A stretch of DNA of 64,000 nucleotides. It comes from Micrococcales bacterium. Lineage in GTDB: Bacteria > Actinomycetota > Actinomycetes > Actinomycetales > WQXJ01. The position numbers were made by a program, and so were the translations under genes. The notes beneath the pieces are model-generated. The model had not been told where the DNA came from. It ran no database searches and saw only the letters and a list, made by a program, of their open reading frames with translations. The stretch spans positions 17,602 through 81,601 of the forward strand of contig WQXJ01000003.1 in NCBI GenBank assembly GCA_009784895.1. Reading direction: 5' to 3'. The first letter of the stretch is position 1; each line of letters begins with the position of its first letter. Below, in pieces: positions 1,178 to 60,830 of the stretch.

Positions 1178-1249
1178 CTCCGCCCCCAGGACTCGAACCT
1201 GGACTAAGGGCACCAAAAACCCCTGTGCTGCCTATTACACCAAGGCGGA
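1178..1249 (-). tRNA. tRNA-Gln (anticodon UUG)
   Basis: Hand-folded cloverleaf on the minus strand. Acceptor TCCGCCT/GGGCGGA, T-arm CCAGG-TTCGAGT-CCTGG, anticodon stem GGGGT/GCCCT with loop TTTTGGT, giving anticodon TTG. 72 nt, CCA not encoded. Confidence 0.88.
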
Positions 1250-1326
1250 ATGCGCCTACCTAGTTTGCCACGGATCGCCAAACAGACGAACCAGCCGGCA
1301 AGTCGCCGATCCGGCAGAATAGTGCC

Positions 1327-1962
1327 ATGCCCCGCGCCAAGACCCAGCGAGCCCGTATGTCCGGCCACGAACGACGCGAGCAGTTATTGCTGGTGGCACG
1401 GTCGTTGTTCGCCGAAAAGGGCTTCGACTCAACCTCAGTGGAGGAGATCGCGGCCAGGGCCGAGGTCTCCAAGCCGGTGGTTTACGAACACTTTGGCGGC
1501 AAAGAGGGCATCTACGCCGTGGTGGTTGATAGGGAGGTCAAGGAGCTTTCGGATCGGCTGCGGCGGTCGCTTAGCTCGGAGGGTCATCCCAAACGGGTGG
1601 TCGAGCGGACCGCGCTGGAGCTACTGGACTACATCGAGGATCACGAAGACGGTTTCAGGATCCTGGTACGCGACTCACCCATGGCCCAGGCCACCGGCCC
1701 GTTTAGCTCAATGCTGGGTGATGTGGCCGGTCAGGTCGGCGCGCTACTTAGGCAAGAATTTGCCGTTCACAAGCTCGAACCAGCTAACTCGACGATTTAC
1801 GCCCAAATGTTGGTCGGCATGATCGCCTTTACCGGCCAGTGGTGGCTGGAGGAACGTCAGCCGGATAAGACCCAAGTGGCGGCCCATTTGACTAACTTGG
1901 CCTGGAACGGCCTGCGCGGCATGGAGTCAAAGCCGCGGGTGGCCAACCCCAAAAACCAATAG
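1327..1962 (+). CDS. TetR family transcriptional regulator
   Basis: 211-aa ORF. The N-terminus RREQLLLVARSLFAEKGFDSTSVEEIAARAEVSKPVVYEHFGGKEGIY is a typical TetR HTH. Confidence 0.85.
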   Translation: MPRAKTQRARMSGHERREQLLLVARSLFAEKGFDSTSVEEIAARAEVSKPVVYEHFGGKEGIYAVVVDREVKELSDRLRRSLSSEGHPKRVVERTALELLDYIEDHEDGFRILVRDSPMAQATGPFSSMLGDVAGQVGALLRQEFAVHKLEPANSTIYAQMLVGMIAFTGQWWLEERQPDKTQVAAHLTNLAWNGLRGMESKPRVANPKNQ

Positions 1963-1977
1963 CCAGCTGCTTGTAGT

Positions 1978-2529
1978 GTGAAGTCCGTGTCCGCAGCTTC
2001 CGAGAGACGGTCTGACGCCACCGAGCGCGTGATCTCGGCCTGGCGCCGCGAGCGCCCGGATCTGGAAGTGGCGCCAATGGAAACTTGGAGCCGGATCACG
2101 CTTCTGGCCAAGTACCTGGACCAGGCTCGCCGCGAGGTTCTAAGCGGTCACGGCCTGCAAAGCTGGGAGTTCGACGTGCTGGCGGACCTGCGCCGGGCCG
2201 GAGCGCCCTACGAGCTGAGACCGGGCCAAATGACCGCTCAGATGATGGTCACCAGTGGCACCATGACCAACCGGATTGACCGCCTCGAGGCCAGCGGCCT
2301 GGTTGAACGCCGCTCTGACGCGGCCGACGGCCGGGTCACCCAGGTTCGCTTGACTGATGCCGGCCGCGACGCGGTGGACGGTGCCCTGGCCGATCTGCTC
2401 CAACGCGAAGCCCAGTTGATGGCACCGCTGGCCCAGAGCCAGGGCGGCGATCTGGCGGCCATGTTGGGCACCTTGCTGGCCCGTTTCGAGGCTGAGGGCT
2501 CAGCCGGCCCGGGCGGCCGCGCCAGCTGA
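1978..2529 (+). CDS. MarR family transcriptional regulator
   Basis: 183-aa ORF. Winged-helix region LRPGQMTAQMMVTSGTMTNRIDRLEASGLVERRSDAADGRVTQVRLTDAGR. Its stop overlaps the start of the next gene. Confidence 0.82.
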   Translation: MKSVSAASERRSDATERVISAWRRERPDLEVAPMETWSRITLLAKYLDQARREVLSGHGLQSWEFDVLADLRRAGAPYELRPGQMTAQMMVTSGTMTNRIDRLEASGLVERRSDAADGRVTQVRLTDAGRDAVDGALADLLQREAQLMAPLAQSQGGDLAAMLGTLLARFEAEGSAGPGGRAS

Positions 2530-4502
2530 TGGCTCATCTGCTTGGCGCCCAGTCGCTGTCGCTGACCTACCCCAATCGCGTGGTCTTGGACCAGGTCTCC
2601 CTGGGGCTGAGCGATGGCGACCGGGTCGGTGTAGTCGGTCGCAACGGCGACGGCAAGTCCTCCTTGCTGGGTCTGCTGGCTGGGCGTCTATTGCCCGATG
2701 CCGGCCGGGTCACCCACCCTGGTGATGTCACGATTGGCCTTTTGGAACAGACCGACCACTTGGACGCCCAGGCCACCGTCCGCCAAGTGGTGGTTGACGG
2801 CGCAGCTGACCACGTCTGGGCAGGGCAGGGCCAGGCCCGCGAGATCATGACTGCCCTGCTGGCCGATGTCCGGCTCGAGACGCCGGTAGGTGAGTTATCC
2901 GGCGGCCAGATGCGCCGAGCGGCCTTGGCCCGGATCCTATTGGGCAGCTGGGATGTGCTATGCCTAGACGAACCGACCAACCACCTAGACATGGTGGCCA
3001 TTACTTGGCTGGCCGGCCACCTGCGGCAGCGCTGGCCACCTGGGCGCGGCGCCCTGCTGGTAGTGACCCATGACCGCTGGTTCCTTGATCAGGTCTCGAA
3101 TGCAACCTGGGAGGTGCACAGTGGCCAGGTGACCGCCTTCGAAGGCGGTTACGCCGCCTACGTGCTGCGCCGAGTCGAACGCGACCAACAGGCAGCTGCC
3201 CAGGCTCAGCGCCGCCGGTCGTTGCTGCGCAAGGAGCTAGCCTGGCTGCGCCGCGGTGCTCCAGCCAGGACGTCAAAGCCAAAGTTCCGCCTGGACTTGG
3301 CCGAGGCCCTGATCGCCAATGAGCCGCCACCGCGCAACCAGGTCGAACTGGAACGTTTGGCCATGTGCCGCCTGGGCAAAGACGTGGCCGAGCTTGATGA
3401 CGTCACCGCCGGCTTCAATGGCCGGCCGGTACTAAGCCACGTCAATTGGCTGATTGGCCCCGGCGACCGGATTGGCCTGCTCGGCGCCAACGGCGCTGGC
3501 AAAACCACCTTGCTAAGCCTGGTCGCAGGGTTAATGAAACCCATGTCCGGACGGGTCAAACGCGGCAAAACTGTCCGCGCGGCGACCCTGCATCAAGACC
3601 TGCGTGAACTAGGTGAATGGGAGGATCAGCCGGTTCGCCAGGTCATGGCCCGGATGAAAGCCAGCTACCAATCAGGTGGCCGGGCGGCCGGAGCTTGGAC
3701 CGGTGGTGGCCGCCAGGCCACACCCGGTTGGAGCGCGGGCAGTCAAGAGATGACGCCTGGCGCCATTTTGGAGCGCCTTGGATTTGGCCCGGCCCATATG
3801 GCGACTTTGGTCCGGTCTTTGTCAGGCGGCCAGCGGCGGCGGCTGCAGTTGGCCATGGTGCTGATGGAAGAACCCAATGTTTTGATCCTGGATGAGCCGT
3901 CCAACGACCTAGACACCGACATGCTGGCCGCCATTGAGGACCTACTGGACTCCTGGCCAGGCACGCTGATCGTGGTGACACACGACCGCTACCTGATGGA
4001 ACGCACCACCGACAGTCAGTGGGCCATCCTTGACGGCCACCTGCGCCACCTGCCGGGCGGCGTTGACCAATTCATCGAGCTGTCCTCCACCAGCCCGCCT
4101 GCCACTGGCGAGGTTGAGCCTAGGCATAAAACCTCACCCAACCAGCCCTCTTCCCGCCAGAGCGAGGTTTGGCCCAAGCCCGGCACCGGCCAACCCCCGA
4201 CCCGCGAGACTGAGCCTTCGCATAAACCCAGCACCAGTCCTGGCCAAGATGACAGCGCCACCAAAGCCCCGGCATCGGACGCCAAAGCCATCCGGGCAGC
4301 CAAGAAACGATTGGCGGCGGTGGAACGACGCCTGGAGCGGCTGCGAGCCCAACGCGACCAAGTCAACGAGCAATTGATCCAGCACGACCCGACCGATTTC
4401 GCCGGCCTGGCTCCGCTGACCACCCGTCTAGCCGAACTGACTGAGGCCATCGCCGCAGAAGAAGACAGCTGGCTCGTCCTGGCCGACCAAGCCGGCCTGT
4501 AA
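2529..4502 (+). CDS. ABC-F family ATPase (two ABC cassettes, C-terminal coiled coil)
   Basis: 657 aa. Walker A motifs GRNGDGKSS and GANGAGKTT, signature motifs LSGGQMRR and LSGGQRRR, Walker B LCLDEPTNHLD and LILDEPSNDLD. The linker before the C-terminal helix carries repeat-derived sequence (see findings). Confidence 0.9.
   Translation: MAHLLGAQSLSLTYPNRVVLDQVSLGLSDGDRVGVVGRNGDGKSSLLGLLAGRLLPDAGRVTHPGDVTIGLLEQTDHLDAQATVRQVVVDGAADHVWAGQGQAREIMTALLADVRLETPVGELSGGQMRRAALARILLGSWDVLCLDEPTNHLDMVAITWLAGHLRQRWPPGRGALLVVTHDRWFLDQVSNATWEVHSGQVTAFEGGYAAYVLRRVERDQQAAAQAQRRRSLLRKELAWLRRGAPARTSKPKFRLDLAEALIANEPPPRNQVELERLAMCRLGKDVAELDDVTAGFNGRPVLSHVNWLIGPGDRIGLLGANGAGKTTLLSLVAGLMKPMSGRVKRGKTVRAATLHQDLRELGEWEDQPVRQVMARMKASYQSGGRAAGAWTGGGRQATPGWSAGSQEMTPGAILERLGFGPAHMATLVRSLSGGQRRRLQLAMVLMEEPNVLILDEPSNDLDTDMLAAIEDLLDSWPGTLIVVTHDRYLMERTTDSQWAILDGHLRHLPGGVDQFIELSSTSPPATGEVEPRHKTSPNQPSSRQSEVWPKPGTGQPPTRETEPSHKPSTSPGQDDSATKAPASDAKAIRAAKKRLAAVERRLERLRAQRDQVNEQLIQHDPTDFAGLAPLTTRLAELTEAIAAEEDSWLVLADQAGL
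4108..4224. repeat. Two copies of the dispersed repeat inside the ABC-F gene (degenerate copy 4108-4128; copy 4203-4224), GCGAGA-first orientation on the + strand
   Basis: GCGAGGTTGAGCCTAGGCATA and CGCGAGACTGAGCCTTCGCATA, translated as GEVEPRHK and RETEPSHK. Confidence 0.7.
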
Positions 4503-4599
4503 CCAGCCCAGTCCCGGCGGGAGGCAGGTTTGGCAGAATGTCCAACAGCACAGTCTCGCGGCAGCCAAGGATGCCGGTGCCGCGAGCCGAGGCAGGAGG

Positions 4600-5151
4600 T
4601 TGGACAAAGTGGCTGAGGCGAACCAGTCAGCATTCCGGGCCGAATACCACACCCTGGTGGTGGCCGCCTGCGAGTGGAGGGCCATGCAAGCCGACCCAGA
4701 GGTGCTGGCCGGGCGGGTCTTTGATCGCCTGGCCTGCCAGAACGCAGCGCCCGATCTGCACCAAGCCTTCCAGCTGGTCCAACAGGTCGTTGACGAGACT
4801 TATCGGGAAGACTCGGGCCGGCGCACAATCATGGAGGCGATCGCCGGCTCGCGCGGCGCTCCGCTGCCAAACGAACCGGCAGATAGTCAAGAGGCAGGCG
4901 CTTTGCGCCAGGCCCTGGCCCAGTTGGGCCGGCGGGAACGAGAGATCCTGCAACTGGCTTACTGGGATGAACTGGCGCGGCCGGAGATTGGCCTGGTGCT
5001 GGGACTCGAGGCCGTCGCGGTCGAGACCTGGCTCGAACGGGCCCAAGCCAGATTCGCCTTGCTGGCAGGGCGCCGGACCGGCATCGATGCGACCGGCGCC
5101 GATTCACCTGGCCTGCTGCGCTCGATCAAACCCGGTAACCGCAGCCGTTAG
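4600..5151 (+). CDS. Sigma-70 family (ECF-like) RNA polymerase sigma factor; divergent region 2
   Basis: 183 aa. Region-4-like HTH segment LGRREREILQLAYWDELARPEIGLVLGLEAVAVETWLERAQARF. TTG start. An alternative-frame ORF at 4538..5164 looks compositionally non-coding. Confidence 0.5.
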   Translation: MDKVAEANQSAFRAEYHTLVVAACEWRAMQADPEVLAGRVFDRLACQNAAPDLHQAFQLVQQVVDETYREDSGRRTIMEAIAGSRGAPLPNEPADSQEAGALRQALAQLGRREREILQLAYWDELARPEIGLVLGLEAVAVETWLERAQARFALLAGRRTGIDATGADSPGLLRSIKPGNRSR

Positions 5152-5179
5152 CAATAAGACTTGACCAGGCGCTGGGGTC

Positions 5180-6100
5180 CTAGCGGGCCAGCGGTCCAGG
5201 CGCCGGACCGGTGACAGTGTGGCAGCGCAATTCGGGGTTGGACTGGCCAATCACAGTGGCCAAATGCCTGGCGTGGGCCGGGCCGGCCGCCAGCACGGCC
5301 ACAGTTGGCCCCGAACCGGTGACGATGGCACCCAGCGCCCCAACTTCCTTGGCCAACGCGATGGTTTCGACCAGAGGCGGACAAGCTTCGGTGGCGGCTG
5401 GCTGCAAATCGTTGCGCAGCCATTGGCCGATGTCACCGGCCTCACCTTGGCCAAGAGCCTCGACCAGTTGGCGTGGCGGCTGAGTGGGCAGGCTACGTTC
5501 GGCCCCAGCCCTAGCGCTGTCAAGGCGATCGAAGATAGCCGGAGTCGATAGCCCACCCCCTGGCCGAGTGGCCAAAACCCAATGCAGGGCGGCCGGGCAA
5601 TCTAGGGTCTCGAGCTGTTCGCCGCGCCCCGATCCCAGAGCCGTGCCGCCATCGAGGCAAAAGTTGACATCCGAGCCCAGGCCGGCGGCCAGTTGGTGCA
5701 GTGCCGCCTTATCAAGTCCGGCCTGCCAATAACGGTTGGCCGCCACTAGGGCAGCGGCCGCGTCGGCGCTGCCTCCAGCCAGTCCTCCGGCCACCGGCAC
5801 AGACTTGGTGATGTCGATTTTGACCTCGGCTGGCACACCAGCCACTTGAGCCACCGCGCGGACGGCTCGAACCGCCAGGTTTTCCTCACTCATTGGCACC
5901 AGTGCGCTGTCCAGGCCGTTCACAACCACCTCGATTTTGGCGGCCACCGGCGGTCGCAGCGTCACCTCTTCGTACAAGTCAACCGCCTGGAAGACAGTCA
6001 GGAGCGGGTGGTAGCCATCTGGCCTGGGTGATCCCGCCAGCAACAGCAGGTTGATTTTGGCCGGGGCGGTCACGGTGACATCGGCTATTTGGGTCGTCAT
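5180..6100 (-). CDS. ispE: 4-diphosphocytidyl-2-C-methyl-D-erythritol kinase
   Basis: 306 aa. APAKINLLLLAGSPRPDGYHPLLTVFQAVDLYEEV plus the GHMP-kinase motif PVAGGLAGGSADAAAAL. ATGA start/stop overlap with rsmA. rsmA-ispE synteny. Confidence 0.92.
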   Translation of the reverse strand: MTTQIADVTVTAPAKINLLLLAGSPRPDGYHPLLTVFQAVDLYEEVTLRPPVAAKIEVVVNGLDSALVPMSEENLAVRAVRAVAQVAGVPAEVKIDITKSVPVAGGLAGGSADAAAALVAANRYWQAGLDKAALHQLAAGLGSDVNFCLDGGTALGSGRGEQLETLDCPAALHWVLATRPGGGLSTPAIFDRLDSARAGAERSLPTQPPRQLVEALGQGEAGDIGQWLRNDLQPAATEACPPLVETIALAKEVGALGAIVTGSGPTVAVLAAGPAHARHLATVIGQSNPELRCHTVTGPAPGPLAR

Positions 6101-7215
6101 GGCGCCTCCATCAGTCCAAGAGCCCCGGCAATTCTGGCGAAGTCGGGGGCAGCTAACTGCTCGCCACGCTGCGACGGTTCAACCTTGGCCTTGATTAGGG
6201 CAGCCTCGGCTGCCTCTTTCGAACCGGCCAGTCCCGACAGGGCCGAGCGCAAGGTCTTGCGCCGCTGGGCAAAGGCGGCGTCGATGACCCGGGCCACTGC
6301 CGGGTACTGGGCCGCCTTGAGATGCCCAAGCTCACTTAGGCTGCTGTGGGGTTCGTCAGTTGGGCCCCAACGTTGGAATAGGACAAGCGAACTGTCAACC
6401 CTTGGGACCGGGTAGAAGACGTTTCGGGGCACTTGGCCGGCCAGGCGGGCCGTGCCCCACCAGGCCAGTTTGGCGCTCGGTACGCCGTAGGTCCGCGAAC
6501 CGGGTTTGGCCACCAGGCGGGCGGCTACCTCGGCCTGGACCATGACCAGGGCTTTGGTGATGAAGTCGAAGCGCTCGAGATAGGTCAGCAGCAGCGGCAC
6601 AGCCACGTTGTAGGGCAGGTTGGCCACCAAGGCGGCCGGATTATGCCAAAGCTCGGTCTCGCGGGCTTGGGTGGGGGTATGCGAAAGCTCGGTCTCGCGG
6701 GAATTGGTTGGGCTGGAGGGGGTAGTGGTGGGGTTAGGGCTGGCCGGCAGCTCAGTCACATCCAAAGCGTTGGCCGTCACCACAGTTAGGCGATCGGCCA
6801 GGCCGGCCGCCCGCCCAGCCACTGTCAGGGGCAGTTGAGCCGCCAGGACAGGGTCAAGCTCGATAGCCGTGACATGGTGTCCGGCCGCCAACAGGGCCAA
6901 GGTCAGCGAACCCAAACCGGGGCCTACTTCAATGACGTGGGGGCCGGCATCGGCCAACTTGACAATCCGGCAGACCGTGCCCGGGTCTACTACAAAGTTC
7001 TGCCCTAGTGATTTGGACGGATGCAACTCCAGGCGCCGGCACAAGGACAGGACCTCGGAGGGGCCAAGCAGGCTGACGCCAACCGGCGCCGCATCATCGA
7101 AGCTCAGTACCAGCCCTTTTGCTGGAACGCGCCCCAGGCGCCGCAGGGTGTGGCGTAACGACCCTTGATGTAACCCAAGCCCCAGGCAATTTGTGTAGCC
7201 GGGTTGGTGCGCCAA
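6097..7215 (-). CDS. rsmA: 16S rRNA (adenine1518/1519-N6)-dimethyltransferase RsmA/KsgA, with a repeat-derived internal insertion
   Basis: LGQNFVVDPG, SAM motif VIEVGPGLGSLTLAL, and LVANLPYNVAVP. The only canonical start codon upstream of the conserved core is the ATG at 7215, which overlaps the upstream gene by 112 nt, so the start is uncertain. Confidence 0.88.
   Translation of the reverse strand: MAHQPGYTNCLGLGLHQGSLRHTLRRLGRVPAKGLVLSFDDAAPVGVSLLGPSEVLSLCRRLELHPSKSLGQNFVVDPGTVCRIVKLADAGPHVIEVGPGLGSLTLALLAAGHHVTAIELDPVLAAQLPLTVAGRAAGLADRLTVVTANALDVTELPASPNPTTTPSSPTNSRETELSHTPTQARETELWHNPAALVANLPYNVAVPLLLTYLERFDFITKALVMVQAEVAARLVAKPGSRTYGVPSAKLAWWGTARLAGQVPRNVFYPVPRVDSSLVLFQRWGPTDEPHSSLSELGHLKAAQYPAVARVIDAAFAQRRKTLRSALSGLAGSKEAAEAALIKAKVEPSQRGEQLAAPDFARIAGALGLMEAP
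6642..6699. repeat. Repeat doublet (6642-6663 TATGCCAAAGCTCGGTCTCGCG; 6678-6699 TATGCGAAAGCTCGGTCTCGCG) inside rsmA
   Basis: Two 22-mers differing at one base and starting 36 nt apart. In the gene sense they read RETELSH..RETELWH. Confidence 0.9.
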
Positions 7216-8354
7216 TCGGCTCCGGCCGAGGCCATCTTTGAGCCGGGCAAAGCTTGAGGAATGCCATAGGCGCCCGAGGACGGGTTGGAGGAGTTAACTC
7301 GCCAGCCTGATTCACGTTCCCACAAGGCCACCAGGCAGGCGAATTGGTCATCGCCCCAGCCGTACTGGTTGGCCATCATTTCCTTGGCGATGGCCTGGGC
7401 ACTGCCCGGAGAGACATTGATAGGCACATTGGGCACATTGGTGGGCTTTGGCGCCTCCTTGGTGCCAACCAAGGTGATCTCGTCAACCGGCGCCACCACA
7501 ATGGTGTCCATGACCACGGTGCGCTCAAGCTCAGTGTCACCGGCCATGGTGGCGACATAGGTCACCAGCCGCTGGCCGGCCTTGCCCTCTTGAACCACCT
7601 TGGTGGTGCCTTTGGCCATCGTGGCGTCTTTCTTGGTGACCTTTTCGAACGGCAGGACGATTGTCTGGGAGCCGTCAGTGATGAAGGCCCGCTCTACTGT
7701 GATGGTCTGGCCCGGCTTGGTCGGCTGGTCAAGTGCCGGGTTGACCTGGTCATCTGGCCCCAAAACTACGCCTAACGCAGTCAAGGCATCGGAGACGGTG
7801 GCGGCGTTGGTTTGCGCCTGCAACTTGGCCCCGTCGACCACCACCATCATCACCTTGGGCGTGGAGACAGTGACCACGCTGGTCTGCCGGTCAACCGCAG
7901 CCCCCCGGGCGACAGACAACTGGGATTCGGCGGCGCGCACGCCCAGGTCCGCCAAGGCCAGGTCAACTGTCTCGGCGGTGGTCCAGACCACCCGCTGGGC
8001 TCCGTCAATGTTCAAAGACAGCGGCTTGGCCAGCCGAACTACGATTTCGCCGCCACGCGGCACGGCCGCTCCAGGCGCCGGTGCCACCAGATCGCGTTCG
8101 CCGTAGGTGACGCCTTCCTGTGCCAGCACCGAGCCAACCGAACCGCCAAAAGTGGTTACCTGGGTCGACTCGCCGTCAACGGTTAAGGTGACGGTCTTGT
8201 GAGCGGTGGCAAAACCGGTCAGGGCACCGGCCGCCAGCACGGTCGCCGTGACCTTGGCGGTCCAGCCAAGTGCCCGCCGGCGGCCAGACGCGCGGCGCCC
8301 ATTGGCGCGATGCGTCCGGGATGCCGCACGGGATCCAGAACTCTTCAGAACCAA
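7104..8354 (-). CDS. RpfB-like secreted cell-wall hydrolase (DUF348 repeats + G5 domain + C-terminal transglycosylase-like domain)
   Basis: 416 aa with an N-terminal TM/signal segment. Repeated V.V.VDG..(x)..T.A.TV..aL modules. G5-like segment KGTTKVVQEGKAGQRLVTY. The C-terminus WERESGWRVNSSNPSSGAYGIPQALPGSKM...GWY is typical of lytic-transglycosylase-like domains. Conserved position upstream of rsmA-ispE. TTG start. Confidence 0.78.
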   Translation of the reverse strand: MVLKSSGSRAASRTHRANGRRASGRRRALGWTAKVTATVLAAGALTGFATAHKTVTLTVDGESTQVTTFGGSVGSVLAQEGVTYGERDLVAPAPGAAVPRGGEIVVRLAKPLSLNIDGAQRVVWTTAETVDLALADLGVRAAESQLSVARGAAVDRQTSVVTVSTPKVMMVVVDGAKLQAQTNAATVSDALTALGVVLGPDDQVNPALDQPTKPGQTITVERAFITDGSQTIVLPFEKVTKKDATMAKGTTKVVQEGKAGQRLVTYVATMAGDTELERTVVMDTIVVAPVDEITLVGTKEAPKPTNVPNVPINVSPGSAQAIAKEMMANQYGWGDDQFACLVALWERESGWRVNSSNPSSGAYGIPQALPGSKMASAGADWRTNPATQIAWGLGYIKGRYATPCGAWGAFQQKGWY

Positions 8355-8484
8355 ACTTCGATATCTCCCCGGGAGGGCTCGGGTTGTCTGCCAACATCGA
8401 CGCTAGCGGATTTTGGCTGATCAGGCCAATCCGATGGCCAGGTTTGTGGACGGCAACTAGGCGGTTTTGACCGCCTGGGCGGGT

Positions 8485-9384
8485 TCACCAGGTTCCGTAG
8501 ACCGCCTCAGAATTCGCGCTGACCTGGGCACATGCGGCCTCGAGTGGCATTGACATGGCGCTGGCCAGGCGCCGCATAGTCAGTGCCGCTAGGTATGGGG
8601 CATTGGCCCGGCCGCGGTACGGTTCGGCCGTCAGGTAGGGGGCGTCGGTTTCCAGAAGCACGCCCGATGCCGGCAGCTCGCCGACCGCCTCGACCAGGCC
8701 TTTGGCGTTGGCGAAGGTAATGGTTCCGGCAAAGGAGCAGTACCAGCCTCGCTCGGCGCAGATACTGGCGAGTTCGGCGCCGGCCGAGAAGCAGTGGAAA
8801 ACGGTGCGTTCCGGCGCGCCGACCGCCTCGAGGGTTTCGACCACCTCGCGGTGGGCGTCACGGTCGTGGATTTGAAGGGCCAGGCCCAACTCCTTGGCCA
8901 GGGCGATGTGGTCCTTAAAGGCTTCGATTTGGGTGTGGTGGTGTTCGGGGCCGGTGCGGTAGAAGTCCAAGCCGGTCTCGCCAATTGCTCTGACCCGCGG
9001 GTTGTCGATGGCCCATTGGCGGATCTGGTTGAGTCCGTCTTGGTAGGCGCCCTTGGCCTCAAGCCTGGGCGCTTCATTGGGGTGAATGGCAATGGCGCCA
9101 AGTACGGCGGGGTTCTTGACCGCTTCGGTGGCGGTCCAGTAGGCCGAGTCCAGGTCGCAGCCGCATTGGACTATCCGATCCACCCCCACGGCGCTAGCCT
9201 TTTCGACTTGACTATCCAAGCTCAGGGCCGGTCTGGGCCACTGGCCTGGCTCAATGTGGGTGTGGTTATCCACCACCGGCGCCGGCAGGGGTTCCGGCAG
9301 CGGCGGGTATGAACGGTCCTTGGCCAATTTGGCTGTCCCCCTGTCCGCCGCGCCCACCCCAACCGCGAGGTCGAGCTTTCGCAT
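8485..9384 (-). CDS. TatD family metal-dependent hydrolase
   Basis: 299 aa. The VVDNHTHI metal-binding start, GETGLDFYR, and other TatD-family histidines/aspartates (QIHDRDAH, FHCFS, LETDAPYL). Confidence 0.88.
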   Translation of the reverse strand: MRKLDLAVGVGAADRGTAKLAKDRSYPPLPEPLPAPVVDNHTHIEPGQWPRPALSLDSQVEKASAVGVDRIVQCGCDLDSAYWTATEAVKNPAVLGAIAIHPNEAPRLEAKGAYQDGLNQIRQWAIDNPRVRAIGETGLDFYRTGPEHHHTQIEAFKDHIALAKELGLALQIHDRDAHREVVETLEAVGAPERTVFHCFSAGAELASICAERGWYCSFAGTITFANAKGLVEAVGELPASGVLLETDAPYLTAEPYRGRANAPYLAALTMRRLASAMSMPLEAACAQVSANSEAVYGTW

Positions 9385-9462
9385 GACATCATGCCAGGCC
9401 TCAACCTCGCGGGTGTTGGTGCTGCTGAGCTCGCCGGTGGTGGGGCCGCCTGGCGCGGCCGG

Positions 9463-12064: not shown

Positions 12065-12098
12065 CCTGCACTAATACCGCGAGACTGAGCTTTGGCAT
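12065..12098. repeat. 34-nt repeat copy immediately after the pncA stop (CCTGCACTAATACCGCGAGACTGAGCTTTGGCAT)
   Basis: 32/34 identical to 58868-58901. Contains the GCGAGACTGAG variant of the repeat core. Confidence 0.9.
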
Positions 12099-12154
12099 GG
12101 GGGCCGGTGCGGAGAACATGGGCCGGGGCGGAGGACATGGGCCGGTGCGGAGAA
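12096..12154. repeat. Three tandem 19-21-nt units (CATGGG(GG)CCGG(T/G)GCGGAG(A/G)A)
   Basis: Read directly: catgggggccggtgcggagaa / catgggccggggcggagga / catgggccggtgcggagaa. Confidence 0.85.
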
Positions 12155-12315
12155 AGCGGCGTCGTCTCGCGCCGTGACTTGGGGCGATGCGACGCATCGC
12201 CAAAGTCACATGCCCGGAGCCAAACCCTGACGACGCCCCTTACCCCGCCCCTCTTTTTTGGGCCCTTGGGTTTCGTGCAAAAGCTCAGTCCCGCAGTGGA
12301 GGAGGGGTCTGAGCT

Positions 12316-15558: not shown

Positions 15559-15594
15559 GTGGCACATCCGCTTTTGTCTCGCGGATTGGGCCAG

Positions 15595-15774
15595 GTGCGG
15601 TACCTCGGTCTCGCTGCAAATGTGGGGTTGACCTGTACTTTTGTCGCGAAGTTGAGCATTGGCAGAGCATTGCCTGTTGCCCGATGCCGGCCCCCACCTC
15701 AGTGTCACGGGCTTGGCCGTGTGCGGTACCTCGGTCTCGCTGCAAATGTGGGGTTGAGCTGTGCTTTTGTCGTG
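15595..15774. repeat. Two 54-nt direct repeats (15595-15648 and 15721-15774; period 126) upstream of ilvD, each containing the CTCGGTCTCGC core
   Basis: GTGCGGTACCTCGGTCTCGCTGCAAATGTGGGGTTGA(C/G)CTGT(A/G)CTTTTGTCG(C/T)G is read twice. Confidence 0.9.
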
Positions 15775-15839
15775 TCACTGGGGCAGCTCGCATCCCAGCG
15801 TAGGCTTGGGGGACGCAACGAGCCAGAAAGACCCAAGTC

Positions 15840-22206: not shown

Positions 22207-22285
22207 CTGAATCCTGGTTCACTCGGGTTGGGGTGGAGAAGCCATTGGCTCGACAGGCCAGTCTACCTGGACCCACTGCCGCCAC

Positions 22286-25200
22286 TTGGCCAGGGACAGG
22301 CGCGCCTCCCACCACTTGGAGACATGTCGGCTTAAGTTTGTGCCCGTGAGGCCTGCTTTCTTTGCCGGATTAAGGCGAGCTGCGACAAATCGGGCCGTCA
22401 CTGGGCCGCGCCCTGTGACGGCAGAAGACCTTAGGGCTGCCCAAATGGGCCGGGTTTTCGACGGCTGGAATGCCGAGTTATCGACCCTTGGCGGCACTAG
22501 CGCTATGCGCGATATTGCGGCTTTGGGCAACACGGTTCTGAACCTGACGACGGCCCACCCCAGCGGTATTGCCCAGCTGTATGCCGGCCGGCCCACACTC
22601 ATCTCCACGCTGGTCCGCGACAAAGCCGAGGCCCGGGCCGCCGGTTTCAAGGCCGCCCAAGTCAAAGCCCTAGCCGAGGCACATGCCGAACGCTACGGGC
22701 TGCCGCCAATTCAACTTGGATTGGGCATTGCCTTTTGGACCGTGGAAGACGTTGACGGCAGCGAAGTGCCAATGCGTGTGCCGGTGATGCTGCGTGGGAT
22801 TGATATTCGCAACACTAACCACGGCCTCGAATTGGAACTAGAGCCTTCGGTATCAATCAATCCGGAATTGGTCCGAGCTTTGACTGGGCGTGGTATTCCG
22901 GTTGATCCGGCGGCGTTAGCCCGTGACGCATTGTCCGGTTCAGCTTTCAATCCAACCCCGGTATTGCGGGCCGTCGAAGCGATGGGGCAAGCGGCCTACG
23001 GCGACTTCACAGTCAAAAACAAGTCAATTGTCGGTGTCTATGAACACCCTGGCCAGACCCTGATGCGGGATATCGACTACGGTCTGGAGCTGTTGCAGCG
23101 TCATCCGGTGATTGCAGCCTTGGCGGGCGACGAATCAGCCCAGATTCGCCTGCTCGGTACGGCCCTGGCGCCGCGCCTGGAAGGCGACCGCCCACCAGAC
23201 CACGAGCGTGGCGTGGGCGATTTGACTCCCAGCCAGTCCTACGTTGTCGACGTGGTGGCCGCTGGGGCATCAGTGCTGGTAGACACGCCACCAGGACCAG
23301 CTGGGCCGGCCACAGTGGCAGCCGTTATTGCCGACTCAATTGGTTCGGGACGTTCGGTGCTTTACGTTGGCGGCCAACGGCGTTCGGCTCAGGCGGTGGC
23401 GCGGACCTTGCAGGCACACGGCCTAGGCGAGGGGCTGCTGGATCTGAAACCGGCCCCGGGTTGGCCCAACCGCTCTGTTGCGCACCTGGTCAAGGGCATG
23501 TACGTGTCCAGCGCGCCGGTTGATGCGGCTGGCATTTTGCGCATCAGGTCTGCCCTGACTGAGCGGAGCGCGCAGATTTCGGCCTATATTGACGCGCTGC
23601 ACCAGCCGATGGGCCAATTGGATGTCTCGGCCTATGACGCCCTAGAGGCCATTGCTCGCATCACTGAGGACTATCCCTCTGCCCGCACCACCGTTCGTCT
23701 CAATCTACAAACCGCGGCGCGCCTGGATTCGCCAGCCAGGGACGAGGTCCGTAGCTGGCTAGAACAGGGCGCCCGCCTTGGGATGTTCCGGGTTTCAGCC
23801 GAGGCGACCGCGTGGTTCGGCGCAGCGGTCATGTCTGAGTCCGAGTCCGACCAAGCCTTGACCCTATTGGACCGCCTGCGGGTGGGATCGTTAGCCCAGG
23901 TCATTGACCAAATGAAGCAGGTCACCAGCGAGGCCGAGCTGGCCGAATCAACCACCATTGCCGGCTGGGGCGACCAACTGGACATGCTGGTGGGTGTGCG
24001 CCAAGCCCTCGACCAGTTCATTCCAGAAGTCTTTGAGCGGTCTCCTAGCGACATGGTGGCAGCTACGGCCACGGCCGAATGGCGTGCCGCTAACAAGGCT
24101 GAAATGTCGAACCGCACCCGGCGGCGGCTGATCAAGCAGGCCAAGGACCTGGTGCGTCCAGGGCTCAGAGTAGACAACCTGCACCAGGCCTTGGAACAGG
24201 TGGCCGAGCAGCGCCAGATCTGGCTCAGCTGGGCGCCGGACGTGCCCTGGCCCAGACTGCCTGCTGGCATGGCCCAGGTCGAGGCCGAATACGCCACCGT
24301 GCGCTCAGATCTCGACGCCCTAGACGCAATCTTGACCAAGTCCCAGGGCGAGTCACTGGTGACTTTGCCTTTCGACGGCCTGATCGCCAGACTCGATCGG
24401 CTCGACCAAGACCGGGGCTGGTTGGACACTTTGCCCAAGATGAACCAACTGGCCGTCAAACTCCACCAGGCTGGCCTTGGCGAGCTGCTGGGCGACCTAA
24501 CCTCACGCCGGGTCGGCCCAGTCGACCCTGAGCAGGTCGAAGCCGCGGCCGAGATCGCGGCCGTTGGCCGCGAAGCAGATTTGGCCTGGTGGTCGACCGC
24601 CCTGGCCACGGCACTGGAGGCCAATCCGGATTTGGCTGAATTTGGCGGCGACAAGCTGGGCAGCCTGGTTGAGTCGTATTGCGAACTCGACGTAGCCCAT
24701 ATCGCCACCAAACCAACTCCGATCAGGGCGGCCATCTGCGCCTGGCGCGATCAGGCGGCGGAGAACTATCCAGGCCAGGCCTTTAAGCTGGCCCACGCCC
24801 CGGCTGGCGCCACCTTGCGCCAGGTCATTGCCGACGCCCCCAACGTGGCGCTCAAAGCCCGGCCATGCATCATGGCGGGCCCGGTTATGGTGCCCGGAGC
24901 CATCCCACTGACCGAAACTGGCGGCCCGGTCTTCGATTTGGTGATCGTCGACGGCGCCGATGCAATGAGCACAGCCGTGGCCGTACCCACCCTGGGTCGC
25001 GGCCACCAGGTTGTGGTCTTCGGTGACACTGGCCGGGCGGCAGCTGGTTCGTTGACCCAGGCCGCAGCGCAGGTCATGCCCAAAGTTGAGCTACCAGCTG
25101 AAGGCCAAGAACGCGACCCGCGCCTGGCCAGGCTTCTCGAATCGGTCGGCTACGCCACGCTCGGTCCATTGCTACCAATGCCTTCCAGCGTCGAGGCCCT

Positions 25201-32419: not shown

Positions 32420-32794
32420 TCAGGTGGTGGCTGGCTGTTTGGACTTGGCCGCGCCGGCTCCACCGGAGCAATTTGTCGCACCGGTTTTGGTTTCGTTGGC
32501 AGCGCTTGTCTTGGCCTCACTGGCTGCACCGGTTTTGGCCTCACTGGCTGCGCCGGTTTTGGTCTCACTCGTGTCAGGCCGGCCAGAGGATCGAACCGAA
32601 CCAGATTTCGACCGGCCGGAGCGCGAATCAGTGCGGTAAAAGCCCGATCCCTTGAAGACCACTCCAACTGAACCGAACCGCTTACGCAGCAGGCCACTGC
32701 ACTCAGGGCAGTCCGTCAACGCCGGCTCCTGGAAGTCTTGACGCTGGTCAAAACCGTGATGGCACTGGGTGCAGGTGTAGGAGTAGGTAGGCAC
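32420..32794 (-). CDS. FmdB-family zinc-ribbon protein with a repetitive C-terminal tail
   Basis: GTG start at 32794, preceded by GGAGGAAG. VPTYSYTCTQCHHGFDQRQDFQEPALTDCPECSGLLRKRF has the CxxC...CxxC pattern. Confidence 0.8.
   Translation of the reverse strand: MPTYSYTCTQCHHGFDQRQDFQEPALTDCPECSGLLRKRFGSVGVVFKGSGFYRTDSRSGRSKSGSVRSSGRPDTSETKTGAASEAKTGAASEAKTSAANETKTGATNCSGGAGAAKSKQPATT
32513..32569. repeat. 24-nt tandem repeat (2 full units plus a partial) in the FmdB tail
   Basis: GGCCTCACTGGCTGC(A/G)CCGGTTTT occurs twice, then GGTCTCACT. It encodes repeats of the type EAKTGAAS. Confidence 0.85.
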
Positions 32795-32859: not shown

Positions 32860-33597
32860 TCAAGCGGGCCAAGTGCCAACTGTCTGTTCACCATCTGGGC
32901 AGTTGCCGTTGGCTCGATTCTGTTCAAACAGCTCCACGCCGCCAGCGGTCAGCACACCGTCTACGGACAAGTCGTGAGACTCTCGCGGCAGAGTACCGGC
33001 CGGGTGAACCTCGAATGGGTAAACCACAGCCAAGACCACGGACCCCGACCGGCGGTGGGCCAGCGCGCGGTCGTACCAGCCTCCGCCGCGACCCAGTCGG
33101 GTTCCAGACCGGTCGACCCCCAAGGCCGGCACCATCACCAAGGAACACTGGCTCAATGCCGTGGCCGGCAGATAGGGCGGCTGGGGACTGGGCAACTGTC
33201 CTGGTGGGGCAACTGGCAGGGCGCAGGTTGCGGCCGTGGCCCGCCCCCAGCGCAGCTCTCGGAGCGACGCGCCCGGCGCGGGCAGCAGCAGGCCAAGGCC
33301 TCGGGCGACCAAGTCGCAAAGCAGCTGTCTGGTTGGCGGTTCAGATCCGAACGACTGGTAACAGGCCACGGTCTCCCCCGCCGCCGGCATCAAACCAGCC
33401 AGGCCGAGGTTCCGCATATGCCAAAGCTCAACCTCACGGTCGAAGCGGGGGGTGGGCTGGGCAGTGTGCGAAAGCTCGGTCTCGCGGCAAAAGGCGAGCT
33501 CAGACCGGGGAAAGGTGGTGCACTCGTTGCGGGAGGCGGCATTAGCCAATTCTGACCGTCGCACCAAGGCCGCCTGACGCCACTGATGTTTGTCCAC
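32860..33597 (-). CDS. 5-formyltetrahydrofolate cyclo-ligase with a repeat-derived N-terminal insertion
   Basis: 245 aa. VPALGVDRSGTRLGRGGGWYDRAL is the family motif. Conserved position next to galU. Confidence 0.8.
   Translation of the reverse strand: MDKHQWRQAALVRRSELANAASRNECTTFPRSELAFCRETELSHTAQPTPRFDREVELWHMRNLGLAGLMPAAGETVACYQSFGSEPPTRQLLCDLVARGLGLLLPAPGASLRELRWGRATAATCALPVAPPGQLPSPQPPYLPATALSQCSLVMVPALGVDRSGTRLGRGGGWYDRALAHRRSGSVVLAVVYPFEVHPAGTLPRESHDLSVDGVLTAGGVELFEQNRANGNCPDGEQTVGTWPA
33417..33486. repeat. Repeat doublet inside the 5-FCL gene (degenerate copy 33417-33438; copy 33465-33486)
   Basis: TATGCCAAAGCTCAACCTCACG and TGTGCGAAAGCTCGGTCTCGCG. In the gene sense they read RETELSH..REVELWH. 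Confidence 0.85.
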
Positions 33598-33607
33598 GAA
33601 ATCAAGG

Positions 33608-33704
33608 CTAGGCCAGCCGCCGTGTTGTATGCGAAAGCTCGGTCTCGCGACGGAAGGTGAGACTAGGCCAGCCGCCAGGCCGTGTGCGAAAGCTCGGTCT
33701 CGCG
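33608..33704. repeat. Two tandem ~42-nt units (33608-33649, 33663-33704; period 55), each ending in TGCGAAAGCTCGGTCTCGCG
   Basis: CTAGGCCAGCCGCC...TGCGAAAGCTCGGTCTCGCG is read twice in the 5-FCL/galU divergent intergenic region. Confidence 0.9.
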
Positions 33705-33709
33705 AAAAA

Positions 33710-41165: not shown

Positions 41166-41207
41166 CGAGTAAACTCGTCGCCCGTGGCTCGCTCACTGCG
41201 GGGCTGT
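41166..41207 (+). repeat. 42-nt direct repeat, copy 1 (matches 41334-41375, which includes the first 8 nt of tRNA-Ala)
   Basis: CGAGTAAACTCGTCGC(C/G)CGTGGCTCGCTCACTGCGGGGCTGT; 41/42 identical between the copies. Confidence 0.9.
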
Positions 41208-57435: not shown

Positions 57436-57501
57436 ATTCACGAGTCCGAGGTATCGCATGAGTCCAGGTCAGACCCTCTTCCCGCGAATTTGAGGTATGG
57501 C

Positions 57502-58785
57502 ATGACATTTCGCGGACCCCGACCCAGGCCAGGGCACTGGCTGATTGGAGCGACCTACCTGGGCACCGCGGCCTGTTGGACGTTTTCGACGCCAGTGTGG
57601 GACGTGAATTCCGGGGTTCTGGTCTCCCAACTGCTGGGGGCGCTGGCGCTGACCGGATTCGCCTGGGTGTTTTTCATCGCCACGCGCGCCCGGCCGCTCG
57701 ACGCGCTGTTTGACGGCCTGGACAAGGCCTATCTAACCCACAAGTGGCTTGGAATTGGCTCCGTCGCGCTGGTGGTGGCGCACCTTATCACCATGCATGC
57801 CGCCGATGACCGCCCGGCGGACGGATATGGCCGGCAGCACCCCGAGGGACTTGGCGCACTCGGCCTGCCCAGCCTGGCTTTGTTCGTGGTTCTGGTCCTG
57901 GTGACCCTACTGGCCGGCCGGACAAGCTACGAGAATTGGAAGGCCACACACCTAATCTTGGTCTTGTCCTATGCGCTGGGATTGGCACACTACTCCAACA
58001 CTTCTGCCTACGGGAACTTCAGCCTGTCGCCGTTTAGTCTTTGGCTGAACCTAGTCAACCTCTGCGGTGTCCTAGCGGCCACATACGTGCTTGTCTTCAA
58101 CCGCAAGTTCGCCTTCAGGTACAAATACGAAGTGGCGGCCGTGCGGTCGGTAGCCGTTGGCACTGTGGAACTAACCGGCACGCCAAAGGGCCGTGCCATG
58201 AGCCACCGGCCGGGTCAGTTCGCCTTCATGAAGTTGTCCGGCAGGCGGATTCGATTCCCGTCCCACCCATTTACGATCAGTTCCTCGCCCAAGGCCCAGC
58301 AGATCCAGTTCACCATCAAGTCGCTGGGTGACCACACCGCCCACTTGGGCGACGCCATCGAGGTCGGTGACGAATTCGCCTTGTCAGGGCCGCACGGACG
58401 GTTCGACTACACCAAGGCAAGCCGGCGCCAGCTCTGGATCGCCGGTGGGATTGGAATCACTCCGTTCAGGAGCTTCCTCGCATCAGCTGTCCCGGCAGAG
58501 TTCTCGGTCGACCTGTTCTATGCCTACCACGGCCATGCCCAGGCCGCTTATCTTGATGAGCTGACGGCCATGGCGACGGGCAACCTCCGCCTGCATCTGG
58601 TCGACGACACCGTCGACGGCTTTCTCACCGCCGCCCAGATCGAGCAGCAGATTGACGGTGGGACGCCGGTCGATGTCTTTTTCTGTGGCCCCGAGCCGTT
58701 GCGCCGGGCCATCAAAAGCGGACTGAGGCGCAGCCAAATCGAAGTGCTGAGCTTCCACGCCGAAGCATTCCGCTTTGGCCGCTGA
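57502..58785 (+). CDS. Ferric-reductase-like membrane protein with FAD/NAD(P)-binding domains
   Basis: About 427 aa. Six TM helices with conserved His residues (THKWLG, HLILVLSYALGLAHY), RPGQFAFMKL, HPFTISS (FAD), WIAGGIGITPF (NAD). Confidence 0.8.
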   Translation: MTFRGPRPRPGHWLIGATYLGTAACWTFSTPVWDVNSGVLVSQLLGALALTGFAWVFFIATRARPLDALFDGLDKAYLTHKWLGIGSVALVVAHLITMHAADDRPADGYGRQHPEGLGALGLPSLALFVVLVLVTLLAGRTSYENWKATHLILVLSYALGLAHYSNTSAYGNFSLSPFSLWLNLVNLCGVLAATYVLVFNRKFAFRYKYEVAAVRSVAVGTVELTGTPKGRAMSHRPGQFAFMKLSGRRIRFPSHPFTISSSPKAQQIQFTIKSLGDHTAHLGDAIEVGDEFALSGPHGRFDYTKASRRQLWIAGGIGITPFRSFLASAVPAEFSVDLFYAYHGHAQAAYLDELTAMATGNLRLHLVDDTVDGFLTAAQIEQQIDGGTPVDVFFCGPEPLRRAIKSGLRRSQIEVLSFHAEAFRFGR

Positions 58786-58795
58786 GCCAACACCT

Positions 58796-58902
58796 GTGCC
58801 AAACCTCGGTCTCGCCGCAGAAGGGTGAGTTTGCGAAACCTCGGTCTCGCTACAAAACGCGGGTCCACCTGCACCAACACCGCGAGACTGAGCTTTGGCA
58901 TA
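58796..58902. repeat. Cluster of three repeat copies after the reductase gene (58796-58816, 58830-58851, and inverted 58881-58902; the 34-nt form is 58868-58901)
   Basis: GTGCCAAACCTCGGTCTCGCC, TTTGCGAAACCTCGGTCTCGCT, CGCGAGACTGAGCTTTGGCATA. Confidence 0.9.
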
Positions 58903-58936
58903 CGCCAGGCTCAGCCCCGCCGCGCTGGGTTGGGTT

Positions 58937-59435: not shown

Positions 59436-60830
59436 TCAACCTCCCAGAATCAGCCAGATAACGCCGGCCACCATGCCAACCACTTGAGCCACGCCGGCCA
59501 CCACCAGCATGCGAGCCTTGCTCGTGGGCACTGAGCCGATTGTCTTGCCGTTGGTGCCATTGACCGCGATGTAGTGCAGCATTGGCCCCTTCGACCGGAC
59601 TTCCAAGTATGAATAGACCCAAACCGGGCACAGCAGCGTCACCCACCGCTCGCCTTGAACCTGGACGTCGTCATGCTGGTACATAACGCCATGGTCGTAG
59701 TAGGGCATGGTCTTGTTGGCTTGAACATGCGAGATGTCGACCAACTGCCCCCCAACCAGGCCACGTACTTCGCTGACATTGGAAGTACGGCGCTCGGCCC
59801 GGAACTCACCTTGGAGGTAGTGGGGGTCATAGGGCACGGTGGCGTGGGTGTCCCACGGCGCCACCGAGTTGATGATGTTGTGGGTGTTGAGCCGGGCATC
59901 TTGATTGGCAAACTCGGCGTTCGAAGGCACCAGCAGGTCGTTGACCAACAGGTCGAAGCGCCGCTCAAAGGAGTAGATGTCGTAGTCGTAGTAGGTGGTC
60001 GAGGAATCGCCTTGTTTCTTGGTGTGCTTGCGAACCAGGTGCGCGCCAAGTCCCCGGTGGTCGGCCTTGGCGTTGAGGTCGACCATGAAATAGGGGAAAT
60101 AGACCGGTTGGATGTTCTCCAAGGTGTATTGGGCCAAGAACTTGCGGTTGGCGAAGGCGCGTCGTTTCTTCAAGAACTCCTGCATCGATGCCTTGGCTTG
60201 TTCCCTGGTGACTGTGAAAGGCACAATGCCATCTGGCCGGGCACCGTTTGGGATGCGGTTAGCCGGACTCAGCTGGTTGCGGCACCAGTGGCATTTGACC
60301 CCGGCCAGATTCGCGGCCTGGACCACCATTTCCGCCCCGCAGCTGGGGCAGCGCAGCGTCATGACCTGGTCTTCCGATTCGGCCACGTCTTGGCTGGCGC
60401 CGACCGAGAACTCACTACCCCGCAGATTGGCAACGTCGTCGTTGACCAAGCTGGCCACCCCGGAAGCATCAAGCACAAAGGTCGAACGGCAGTCCTGGCA
60501 GCGCATTTGGCCCAGTTCGACCACCCAGGCCGTGTCAGCCCCGCCGCATTTGGGGCAGGACACACGTTCTGCGAAGTCCTGACCCGGCGGGGCCGGCGGG
60601 GCTGCGACTGGTGGCGGTTCCTGGGCTGGTTGCGCCGGTGGCGCTTCGGCCGATGCCGGTTCCTGGGCTGGTTGCAAAGGCGACGGTCCGCCCGCTGGTG
60701 GCGCCGGCGGCGCCTCGGCCGATGCCGGCGGTTCAGCTGGGGGACCAGCCACGGGTGGCGCTGGCGGCTGGCCGGGTGGAACCGATGCTTGCCCCGACTG
60801 GTTTGGGACTGGCGGCGGAGTCTGCGTCAC
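59436..60830 (-). CDS. Double zinc-ribbon protein with Pro-rich N-terminus and C-terminal TM helix (YdjG-like)
   Basis: 464 aa. CPKCGG...CQDCRS and CPSCGA...CHWCRN ribbons. C-terminal TM MLVVAGVAQVVGMVAGVIWLILGG. Confidence 0.65.
   Translation of the reverse strand: MTQTPPPVPNQSGQASVPPGQPPAPPVAGPPAEPPASAEAPPAPPAGGPSPLQPAQEPASAEAPPAQPAQEPPPVAAPPAPPGQDFAERVSCPKCGGADTAWVVELGQMRCQDCRSTFVLDASGVASLVNDDVANLRGSEFSVGASQDVAESEDQVMTLRCPSCGAEMVVQAANLAGVKCHWCRNQLSPANRIPNGARPDGIVPFTVTREQAKASMQEFLKKRRAFANRKFLAQYTLENIQPVYFPYFMVDLNAKADHRGLGAHLVRKHTKKQGDSSTTYYDYDIYSFERRFDLLVNDLLVPSNAEFANQDARLNTHNIINSVAPWDTHATVPYDPHYLQGEFRAERRTSNVSEVRGLVGGQLVDISHVQANKTMPYYDHGVMYQHDDVQVQGERWVTLLCPVWVYSYLEVRSKGPMLHYIAVNGTNGKTIGSVPTSKARMLVVAGVAQVVGMVAGVIWLILGG

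Follow-up and report, generated by a model that had tools for sequence, protein, structure and literature searches.

The rsmA (ksgA) gene on a 64,000-nt stretch of contig WQXJ01000003.1 (Micrococcales bacterium; G+C 63%; hereafter the window) carries two direct copies of a short sequence, TATGC[C/G]AAAGCTCGGTCTCGCGG, that lie 36 nt apart within the minus-strand open reading frame (ORF) and are read through in its translation. The host is an uncultured member of the Micrococcales, represented by a high-GC actinobacterial metagenome-assembled genome (MAG). These 22-mers represent a family of dispersed DNA repeats rather than a peptide motif, because identical 21-nt cores recur at different loci in both coding and intergenic DNA (e.g., at 6680-6700 and 33467-33487) and in both orientations. 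The rsmA doublet is likely to represent two units of a lineage-specific selfish repeat resembling repetitive extragenic palindromic (REP) sequences, and the copies that survive inside genes would be those passed by selection.

The repeat was surveyed across the window and 5 kb beyond it on the contig deposited in ENA, about 69 kb in all, and copies were located by fuzzy search and with an nhmmer profile built from the copies themselves. The family totals about 23 copies at about nine loci in the window, and no copies were found in the 5 kb past it. An 18-mer, allowed up to three mismatches, matches the window 11 times (0.13 matches expected), a number that none of 100 shuffles reached. On the mRNA-sense strand, the unit is about 36 nt long: a C-rich run of 10-15 nt comes first, then CCGCGAGACCGAGCTTTCGCA, and lastly T(A/G). 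Units are arranged singly, as direct tandems, or as inverted pairs. Tandem spacings are 36, 45, 48, and 48 nt in the coding copies and 35, ~40, 55, and 126 nt in the intergenic ones. The chromosomal orientations of the copies are nearly equal in number (13 vs 10), and orientation thus follows the gene rather than the replication strand.

Most of the family lies outside genes: 14 of the 23 copies are non-coding, though non-coding DNA makes up only about 12% of the window. Copies accumulate in the intergenic DNA at the ends of genes, and several directly follow stop codons. This intergenic majority and a third, degenerate copy in rsmA are corrections to the first interpretation of the stretch, which was made without database searches (the sequence-only reading). 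Several of the inverted pairs have marked folding potential. The region at 9355-9415 folds at -35.2 kcal/mol (z = -5.4 vs shuffles) and the region at 58790-58905 at -49.1 kcal/mol (z = -5.1), and the pair in the gene for 5-formyltetrahydrofolate cyclo-ligase (5-FCL; fold of 33390-33445) reaches z = -3.6. The rsmA doublet, a direct repeat, forms no hairpin (z = -0.9 for the mRNA strand, -0.6 for its complement). The cluster upstream of ilvD includes a degenerate inverted arm at 15644-15664, and the inverted pair at 15596-15664 folds no better than shuffles.

The position of many copies raises the question of whether the 21-mer is a functional signal, such as an uptake-type sequence, a protein-binding site, or a terminator or mRNA-stabilising hairpin, with its frame inside genes being the one that does least harm. 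In favour of such a role, clusters of copies are found at gene ends and inverted pairs are located between convergent genes or shortly past stops; there is about one copy per 3 kb, frame use within genes is biased, and several loci have a highly conserved core. In Haemophilus and Neisseria, the intragenic copies of uptake sequences are kept in the frame that is least harmful to the protein. However, the copies in the window are very clumped, with none at 16-33 kb, at 34-57 kb, or in the extra 5 kb, and direct tandem arrays with variable spacers are atypical of uptake sequences. The hairpins have no T-tract. Only two tRNAs in the window reach the Rfam gathering score, and relaxed Rfam scans of two repeat clusters gave no meaningful match. 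Many copies are also degenerate, which suggests decay over maintenance. A functional signal is an unlikely explanation.

Two gene starts called in ENA, those of tatD (9384) and of a ferric-reductase-like gene (57502), fall inside repeat copies (cATGCGAAAG... and ...GGCATG, respectively); in the second case the predicted ATG is the very end of one copy. The terminal CATG of the element gives an ATG in either orientation. The true starts of these two genes may lie downstream, or the starts may be supplied by the element.

The identity of the host gene in rsmA is clear from its Pfam match (RrnaAD, E 5.8e-33) and from its top structural matches, all of which are solved KsgA structures. Translation confirms the earlier claim of an in-frame doublet: both copies are read without interruption of the frame as ...ANALDVTELPASPNPTTTPSSPTNSRETELSHTPTQARETELWHNPAALVANLPYNV..., and the second is a perfect match to the 21-nt consensus. 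The larger of two inserts in the protein (insert 1) is made up of a C-rich stretch coding for proline, threonine, and serine plus the two 36-nt units, and it lies after the beta-strand at residues 86-90 (ANALD) and before the beta-strand at 138-142 (LVANLPYN). The smaller insert 2 coincides with a decayed third repeat copy, aTGCCCAAGCTCac... (~6322-6342), which is in the same frame and reads SLSELGH.

Comparison with other RsmA proteins indicates that both inserts are additions to the protein. The 14 relatives that could be aligned are the nearest available and are at most 61% identical to the window protein. Insert 1 (~30 residues) is absent from all 14, and all 14 have a 12-aa gap at insert 2. 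The segment from ALDV to ALVANLPYN, which the sequence-only reading had described as unusually long, indeed measures 41 aa here vs about 10-11 aa in 13 of the 14. More distant comparisons agree: Thermus thermophilus KsgA has 19 aa between aligned blocks where the window RsmA has 57 (PDB alignment), and in both T. thermophilus and Bacillus subtilis KsgA, two aligned blocks flank insert 1 and a gap is found at insert 2. The AlphaFold2 model of the window protein has a mean predicted local distance difference test (pLDDT) score of 82. Insert 1 scores only 52-62 and is mostly coil, and the KsgA fold is kept (target-normalised TM-score of 0.78-0.85 vs solved KsgA structures). The results of the ortholog alignment and of the structural model, both proposed as checks of the insertion, support the sequence-only reading. 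In light of the model, insert 1 probably consists of about 30 extra, disordered amino acids. RsmA presumably stays functional, with the insert translated as an extra disordered surface loop. The peptide ETELSHTPTQAR is one example of those predicted from the translated insert.

A different insert is found in the same loop of one relative. The RsmA protein P0004 (59% identical; L019 1768-1832, Ga0123356_10140373) has an insert of ~20 aa, GAGVGAGAESGVGAGVEAELA, that is rich in glycine, alanine, and valine and is assembled from repeats of the GGGGCTGGGGT type whose period is 12-36 nt. The presence of another insert there suggests that the loop tolerates extra residues, and from these sequences the loop before the NLPY strand seems to be a recurrent site of extra sequence.

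Repeats are classic sites of misassembly, and the source of the window is a MAG; a chimeric join or a collapsed repeat could therefore have produced the rsmA doublet as an artefact of metagenome assembly. Yet the ORF is continuous, and both halves of RsmA are present in the correct order. The identical protein is found in records from ENA (ERZ27264051, contig k141_3534734), NCBI (MCL2802525.1, "MAG: Micrococcales bacterium"), and JGI; the sole exact protein match belongs to this same genome. Moreover, the Logan assembly of run SRR10512954 spans the whole doublet at 100% identity (contig L029, window 6600-9265) and covers window 1203-6624, including the copies in the ABC-F gene, at 99.98% identity (L027). 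Since this independent assembly reproduces the doublet, misassembly is excluded for all practical purposes. The doublet is identical in this second sample, and no copy-number polymorphism was seen between the two.

Copies of the repeat also lie inside the genes for 5-FCL and for an ABC-F factor (Table). The 5-FCL insert is about 26 aa long and is missing from 13 orthologs, some of which are syntenic and come from the same sample: the window protein reads ...ELAFC[RETELSHTAQPTPRFDREVELWHMRN]LGLAGLMP..., vs ...LAxAP-GLxGxLP... in the orthologs. It holds two units in the common orientation plus part of an inverted unit. The N-terminal K..WR...RR motif of 5-FCL is present, and the Pfam match begins at residue 73, which corresponds to profile position 40. 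In the ABC-F protein, the copies fall within the linker that joins the second ABC domain (ending near residue 500) to the C-terminal coiled-coil at 590-652 (Pfam limits). A separate segment of the ABC-F protein (residues ~357-403) is rich in glycine, alanine, and tryptophan (QSGGRAAGAWTGGGRQATPGWSAGSQ...), is ~20 aa longer than the corresponding segment of EttA structures, and has no repeat inside.

Table. Repeat copies, inserts, and host genes in the window (window coordinates)
Feature	Position	Strand	Context and details
rsmA/ksgA gene	6097..7050 (ORF 6097..7215)	-	315-324 aa by start call; intact, all motifs
Repeat copy 1 in rsmA	6642..6664	core +, gene -	TATGCCAAAGCTCGGTCTCGCGG; R-E-T-E-L-W-H; nhmmer E 5e-07
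Repeat copy 2 in rsmA	6678..6701	core +, gene -	TATGCGAAAGCTCGGTCTCGCGGG; R-E-T-E-L-S-H; nhmmer E 2.8e-07
rsmA insert 1	6643..6735	-	~31 aa NPTTTPSSPTNSRETELSHTPTQARETELWH; RsmA residues ~104-134; ~93 nt
rsmA insert 2	6319..6354	-	12 aa EPHSSLSELGHL; pLDDT 48
5-FCL copies	33465-33489, 33417-33440	gene -	gene 32860..33597; RETELSH, REVELWH
5-FCL inverted copy	33395-33418	opposite orientation	MRNLGLAG, same codon boundaries; pairs with 33417-33440 in hairpin
ABC-F copies (three)	4108-4128, 4153-4176, 4201-4224	core -, gene +	gene 2529..4502; GEVEPRH, RQSEVWP, RETEPSH
Inverted pair, hairpin	9362..9413		between metG and tatD; predicted tatD ATG (9384) in one arm
Half element	12076..12098	-	starts ~11 nt past stop codon of isochorismatase-family gene
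Repeat copy	12274..12297	+	after rsmI, convergent with isochorismatase-family gene
Intergenic cluster	15576..15790		upstream of ilvD; ~126-nt composite unit duplicated, cores at 15596 and 15722
Two direct intergenic copies	33628..33705	+	between divergent 5-FCL and galU-like genes
Two degenerate copies	57440..57504	-	fill 66-nt spacer between Fpg/Nei-like and ferric-reductase-like genes
Intergenic cluster	58795..58902		between convergent genes; two direct copies and one inverted copy, long hairpin

The eight intragenic copies that have the common orientation (three in the ABC-F gene, three in rsmA, and two in the 5-FCL gene) all share one reading frame, which is the reverse complement of the core (CGC GAG ACC GAG CTT TCG CAT). 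These copies represent four independent sites, i.e., ABC-F, rsmA site 1, rsmA site 2, and 5-FCL, and the chance that three further sites agree with the first in both orientation and frame is about (1/6)^3 = 0.005. The sequence-only reading had proposed that the element keeps the same frame and the same orientation relative to the gene in all three genes. The frame holds; the single orientation is broken by the inverted 5-FCL copy at 33395-33418, and another copy overlaps the predicted tatD start codon.

Stop codons were considered as the cause of the frame bias and rejected, as all six frames read through the core; in one of the alternative frames a stop arises only where TAA or TGA comes after the copy. 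The observed frame is the richest in common codons (geometric mean of 17.7 per 1000 vs 10.6-15.8 in the other five frames), and one of the alternative frames includes the rare codons AGA and ATA. The observed frame also yields a charged, hydrophilic heptapeptide that is preceded by proline, threonine, and serine. We infer that a selective filter, albeit a loose one, keeps the copies in this single frame.

Selection on the peptide itself is a different matter. RETEL[S/W]H could be a selected motif (a docking or modification site) to which the likeness of the DNA is secondary, and three unrelated enzymes do share the heptapeptide, in each case within an exposed segment. This proposal is largely refuted by the non-coding location of 14 of the 23 copies and their occurrence in both orientations, by the identity of synonymous positions across some genic and intergenic copies, and by degenerate in-gene copies that lose the peptide (GEVEPRH, RQSEVWP, and SLSELGH). 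In addition, a profile of the doublet peptide matched only the window's own RsmA and 5-FCL among 1.84 billion representatives. A selected peptide motif is thus highly improbable.

The single frame could also be a product of the way in which copies insert, through microhomology- or homology-guided recombination or template switching into sites that resemble the core. In the genes of the window, sub-words of the core are mostly found in phase 0 (51 of the 72 sense occurrences for GAGCT, 15 of 18 for CGCGAG, and 23 of 28 for ACCGAG), and insertions at such words would inherit the codon phase because this is the phase in which the words sit in ordinary genes. Each of the three genes has a native E-L (GAGCT) shortly upstream of its insert (V-T-E-L-P in rsmA, S-E-L-A-F in 5-FCL, and I-E-L-S in ABC-F). 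The right junction of the 5-FCL insert, GGCCTGGCTGG, codes for G-L-A-G and matches the 3' part of the core at 8 of 11 bases, and G-L-x-G is retained in close 5-FCL orthologs that do not have the element. However, these observations were made post hoc on three genes, the E-L dipeptide is common, and the native TEL of rsmA is ~17 codons away from the first unit. No simple crossover model fits the observed junctions. The insertion mechanism as the source of the single frame is quite unlikely. An extended version of this proposal, in which the ~36-nt unit of 12 codons would act as a mobile peptide cassette with phase-specific integration, is likewise doubtful; here codon-phased microhomology (to words such as GAG-CTN) or another codon-aware mechanism would routinely add RETEL[S/W]H/PT-rich loops to essential enzymes of this actinobacterial lineage. 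If true, it would describe a mechanistically new intragenic selfish element rather than the survivors of random insertion.

In the favoured explanation, i.e., a REP-like selfish repeat filtered by selection, the repeat would have been mobile and have spread as selfish or neutral DNA. Candidate routes of spreading are a REP-associated tyrosine transposase (RAYT) or other IS200-type enzyme encoded elsewhere in the genome, or recombination combined with local tandem duplication. Copies would occasionally land in coding sequence, where survival would depend on three conditions. The inserted length would have to be divisible by three. The site would have to be a tolerant loop or linker, such as the RsmA loop before NLPY, the N-terminal helices of 5-FCL, or the inter-domain linker of ABC-F. 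Lastly, the reading would have to be harmless, i.e., hydrophilic, rich in proline and threonine, disordered, and encoded by common codons (...PT..RETEL[S/W]H). Under this explanation the insert in RsmA would be translated and neutral for the function of the enzyme.

Several observations weigh against this explanation. A single unit is a weak palindrome at best, with a 6-bp stem (GCGAGA/TTTCGC) that is lost in the TGCC (G-to-C) variant. No transposase, RAYT, or integrase was found among ~40 scanned ORFs of the window or the gene calls of the 5-kb flank. No clear target-site duplication is seen; CCGGCC is found on both sides of the rsmA insert and could be there by chance. No empty-site allele was found. 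The frame bias is based on only four sites, as tandem copies within a gene are not independent. Finally, the differences in codon use and hydropathy between frames are modest and the core is free of stops, so selection explains the strict frame only loosely.

Comparison with known repeat systems places the element near, rather than within, established families. Rickettsia palindromic elements (RPEs; Ogata et al. 2000, 2002), as summarised in PMC10969869 and PMC3733652, are palindromes of ~100-150 bp that insert as whole elements and encode a peptide of 30-50 aa. Like RPEs on that description, the window repeat is a dispersed family that is both intergenic and in frame within unrelated housekeeping genes, the host genes remain intact, and the inserts are found at tolerant segments, in a consistent reading frame, and absent from orthologs. 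With respect to the same summaries, there are also differences. The window unit has a 21-nt core and is ~36 nt long with its C-rich tail (the rsmA insert is ~93 nt); in rsmA and the ABC-F gene the copies form direct tandems that lack a hairpin, and only the 5-FCL and intergenic inverted pairs fold. There is no sequence similarity, and the RPE host is an obligate intracellular alphaproteobacterium, in contrast to the Micrococcales MAG. The resemblance to RPEs suggested by the sequence-only reading therefore extends to in-frame insertion absent from orthologs; the window repeat falls outside the family by its size, palindromy, sequence, and host.

The window repeat also resembles REPs (Di Nocera et al. 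2013, PMC3733652). REP units measure 20-40 nt and are found alone, in direct groups, or paired as inverted dimers with a hairpin fold. Most are situated downstream of genes or between convergent ones, and a start or stop codon can come from their ends. Some, a minority, are located in known genes; dimers there code for 20-30 aa, often within enzymes that handle RNA or DNA (PMC3733652). The window unit shares the short length of 20-40 nt and the mainly extragenic location at the 3' ends of genes (14 of 23 copies), and inverted doublets that form hairpins, as in REPs, BIMEs, and REPINs, are found at 9362-9413, 33395-33440, and 58795-58902. It differs in having no conserved GTAG or CGTC tag and only a weak palindrome, and no RAYT was seen among the ~40 window ORFs or the 5-kb flank calls. 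The element does not belong to the GTAG/CGTC REP super-families. Tagged (GTAG/CGTC) REPs were found in eight phyla, among which Actinobacteria are not listed (PMC3733652). The phenomenon itself is not new, because intragenic in-frame REPs, as well as RPEs, have been described in other bacteria, in several phyla besides Rickettsia (PMC3733652, PMC10969869).

As for MITEs (miniature transposable elements with inverted repeats), the full hairpin forms of the window repeat have inverted arms, the CCGGCC at the rsmA insert may be due to chance, and no insertion sequence was seen in the ORFs scanned. The uptake sequences of Pasteurellaceae and Neisseriaceae (uptake signal sequences and DNA uptake sequences) are short conserved motifs that form inverted pairs behind genes, and their intragenic copies use particular frames and fall in poorly conserved protein segments. 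They are far more numerous, are evenly spread, and are not tandem, in contrast to the clumped distribution and tandem arrays of the window repeat. In mycobacteria, mycobacterial interspersed repetitive units (MIRUs) are short repeats (46-101 bp) at gene boundaries that are intergenic within operons and overlap the flanking stop and start codons, and TRIT is a hairpin motif that is also found at gene boundaries. Neither is known to occur in frame inside enzymes. The window copies at tatD and at the ferric-reductase-like gene resemble MIRUs in overlapping start codons, and the sequences are unrelated.

The element is restricted to this lineage in the collections searched. Among 185,579 species genomes (GTDB), the 20-mer is multi-copy in no other genome. 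Searches of JGI metagenomes and IMG/VR with a 19-20-mer likewise gave no multi-copy occurrence, and the scans of all three collections returned either singletons in unrelated taxa or nothing, with one exception. This one convincing extra copy immediately follows a stop codon and is carried by L015, a 1.6-kb contig of JGI metagenome 3300010049, which also holds the nearest relatives. The 21-nt element is absent from L019 and from the syntenic relatives L020 and L023 of the same sample. At the protein level, the concatenated in-frame peptides yielded no candidate sharing three words in an index of 5.8 billion proteins. The two syntenic relatives have local duplications of their own, at 2507-2747, 4048-4313, 4950-5253, 6123-6297, and 7557-7725 in L023 and at 4069-4285 and 5097-5430 in L020. 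These duplications are 50-120 nt long, 80-95% identical, and 116-253 nt apart, and at least some of them copy gene starts or ends (e.g., the 5-FCL 5' end with its ATG and the junction of the rsmA end and the ispE start).

The window repeat indicates that REP-like repeats can colonise the coding sequence of core genes (rsmA, an ABC-F factor, and 5-FCL) in a high-GC Gram-positive lineage, and it widens the range of a phenomenon recorded for the most part in Rickettsia and a few Gram-negative phyla. Such repeats also affect annotation and phylogenetics, in that loops become longer, spurious start codons may arise (at tatD and at the ferric-reductase-like gene), and alignments of MAG marker genes gain non-homologous columns. 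If the use of a single frame were true genome-wide, the family would offer a compact system for the question of selection vs insertion mechanism.

Other repeats and duplications are present in the window. Behind the isochorismatase-family gene and rsmI, three tandem units of ~20 nt (CATGGGCCGGNGCGGAGRA; 12096-12156) lie between the half elements, and a separate hairpin, GTGACTTGGGGCGATGCG..CATCGCCAAAGTCAC (~12160-12215), follows them. A 42-nt sequence has a second copy 168 nt upstream (41166-41207 and 41334-41375; 98% identity); it comprises the region just upstream of tRNA-Ala(CGC) and the first 8 bases of the tRNA, and the extra copy may have been left behind by an integration or duplication event at the tRNA. 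Three in-frame coding repeats are unrelated to the 21-mer: an 81-nt unit present three times (42699-42938) in the Q/P-rich N-terminus of an HtrA-like protease, a 24-nt unit present four times (32478-32569; TKTGAASEA) in a Zn-ribbon protein, and P/A-rich repeats (60610-60728) in a 464-aa ORF (59436..60830). Defence and toxin-antitoxin genes are found at 49925-53789 and in L021 (2347-2787) and include AbiEi/AbiEii(+WYL) and two PIN-domain proteins. A 1293-aa protein (22211-26092) has a weak, sub-threshold match to a C-terminal REase_MTES_1575 domain. Repeat copies are associated with none of these defence-type genes, nor with the 1293-aa protein.

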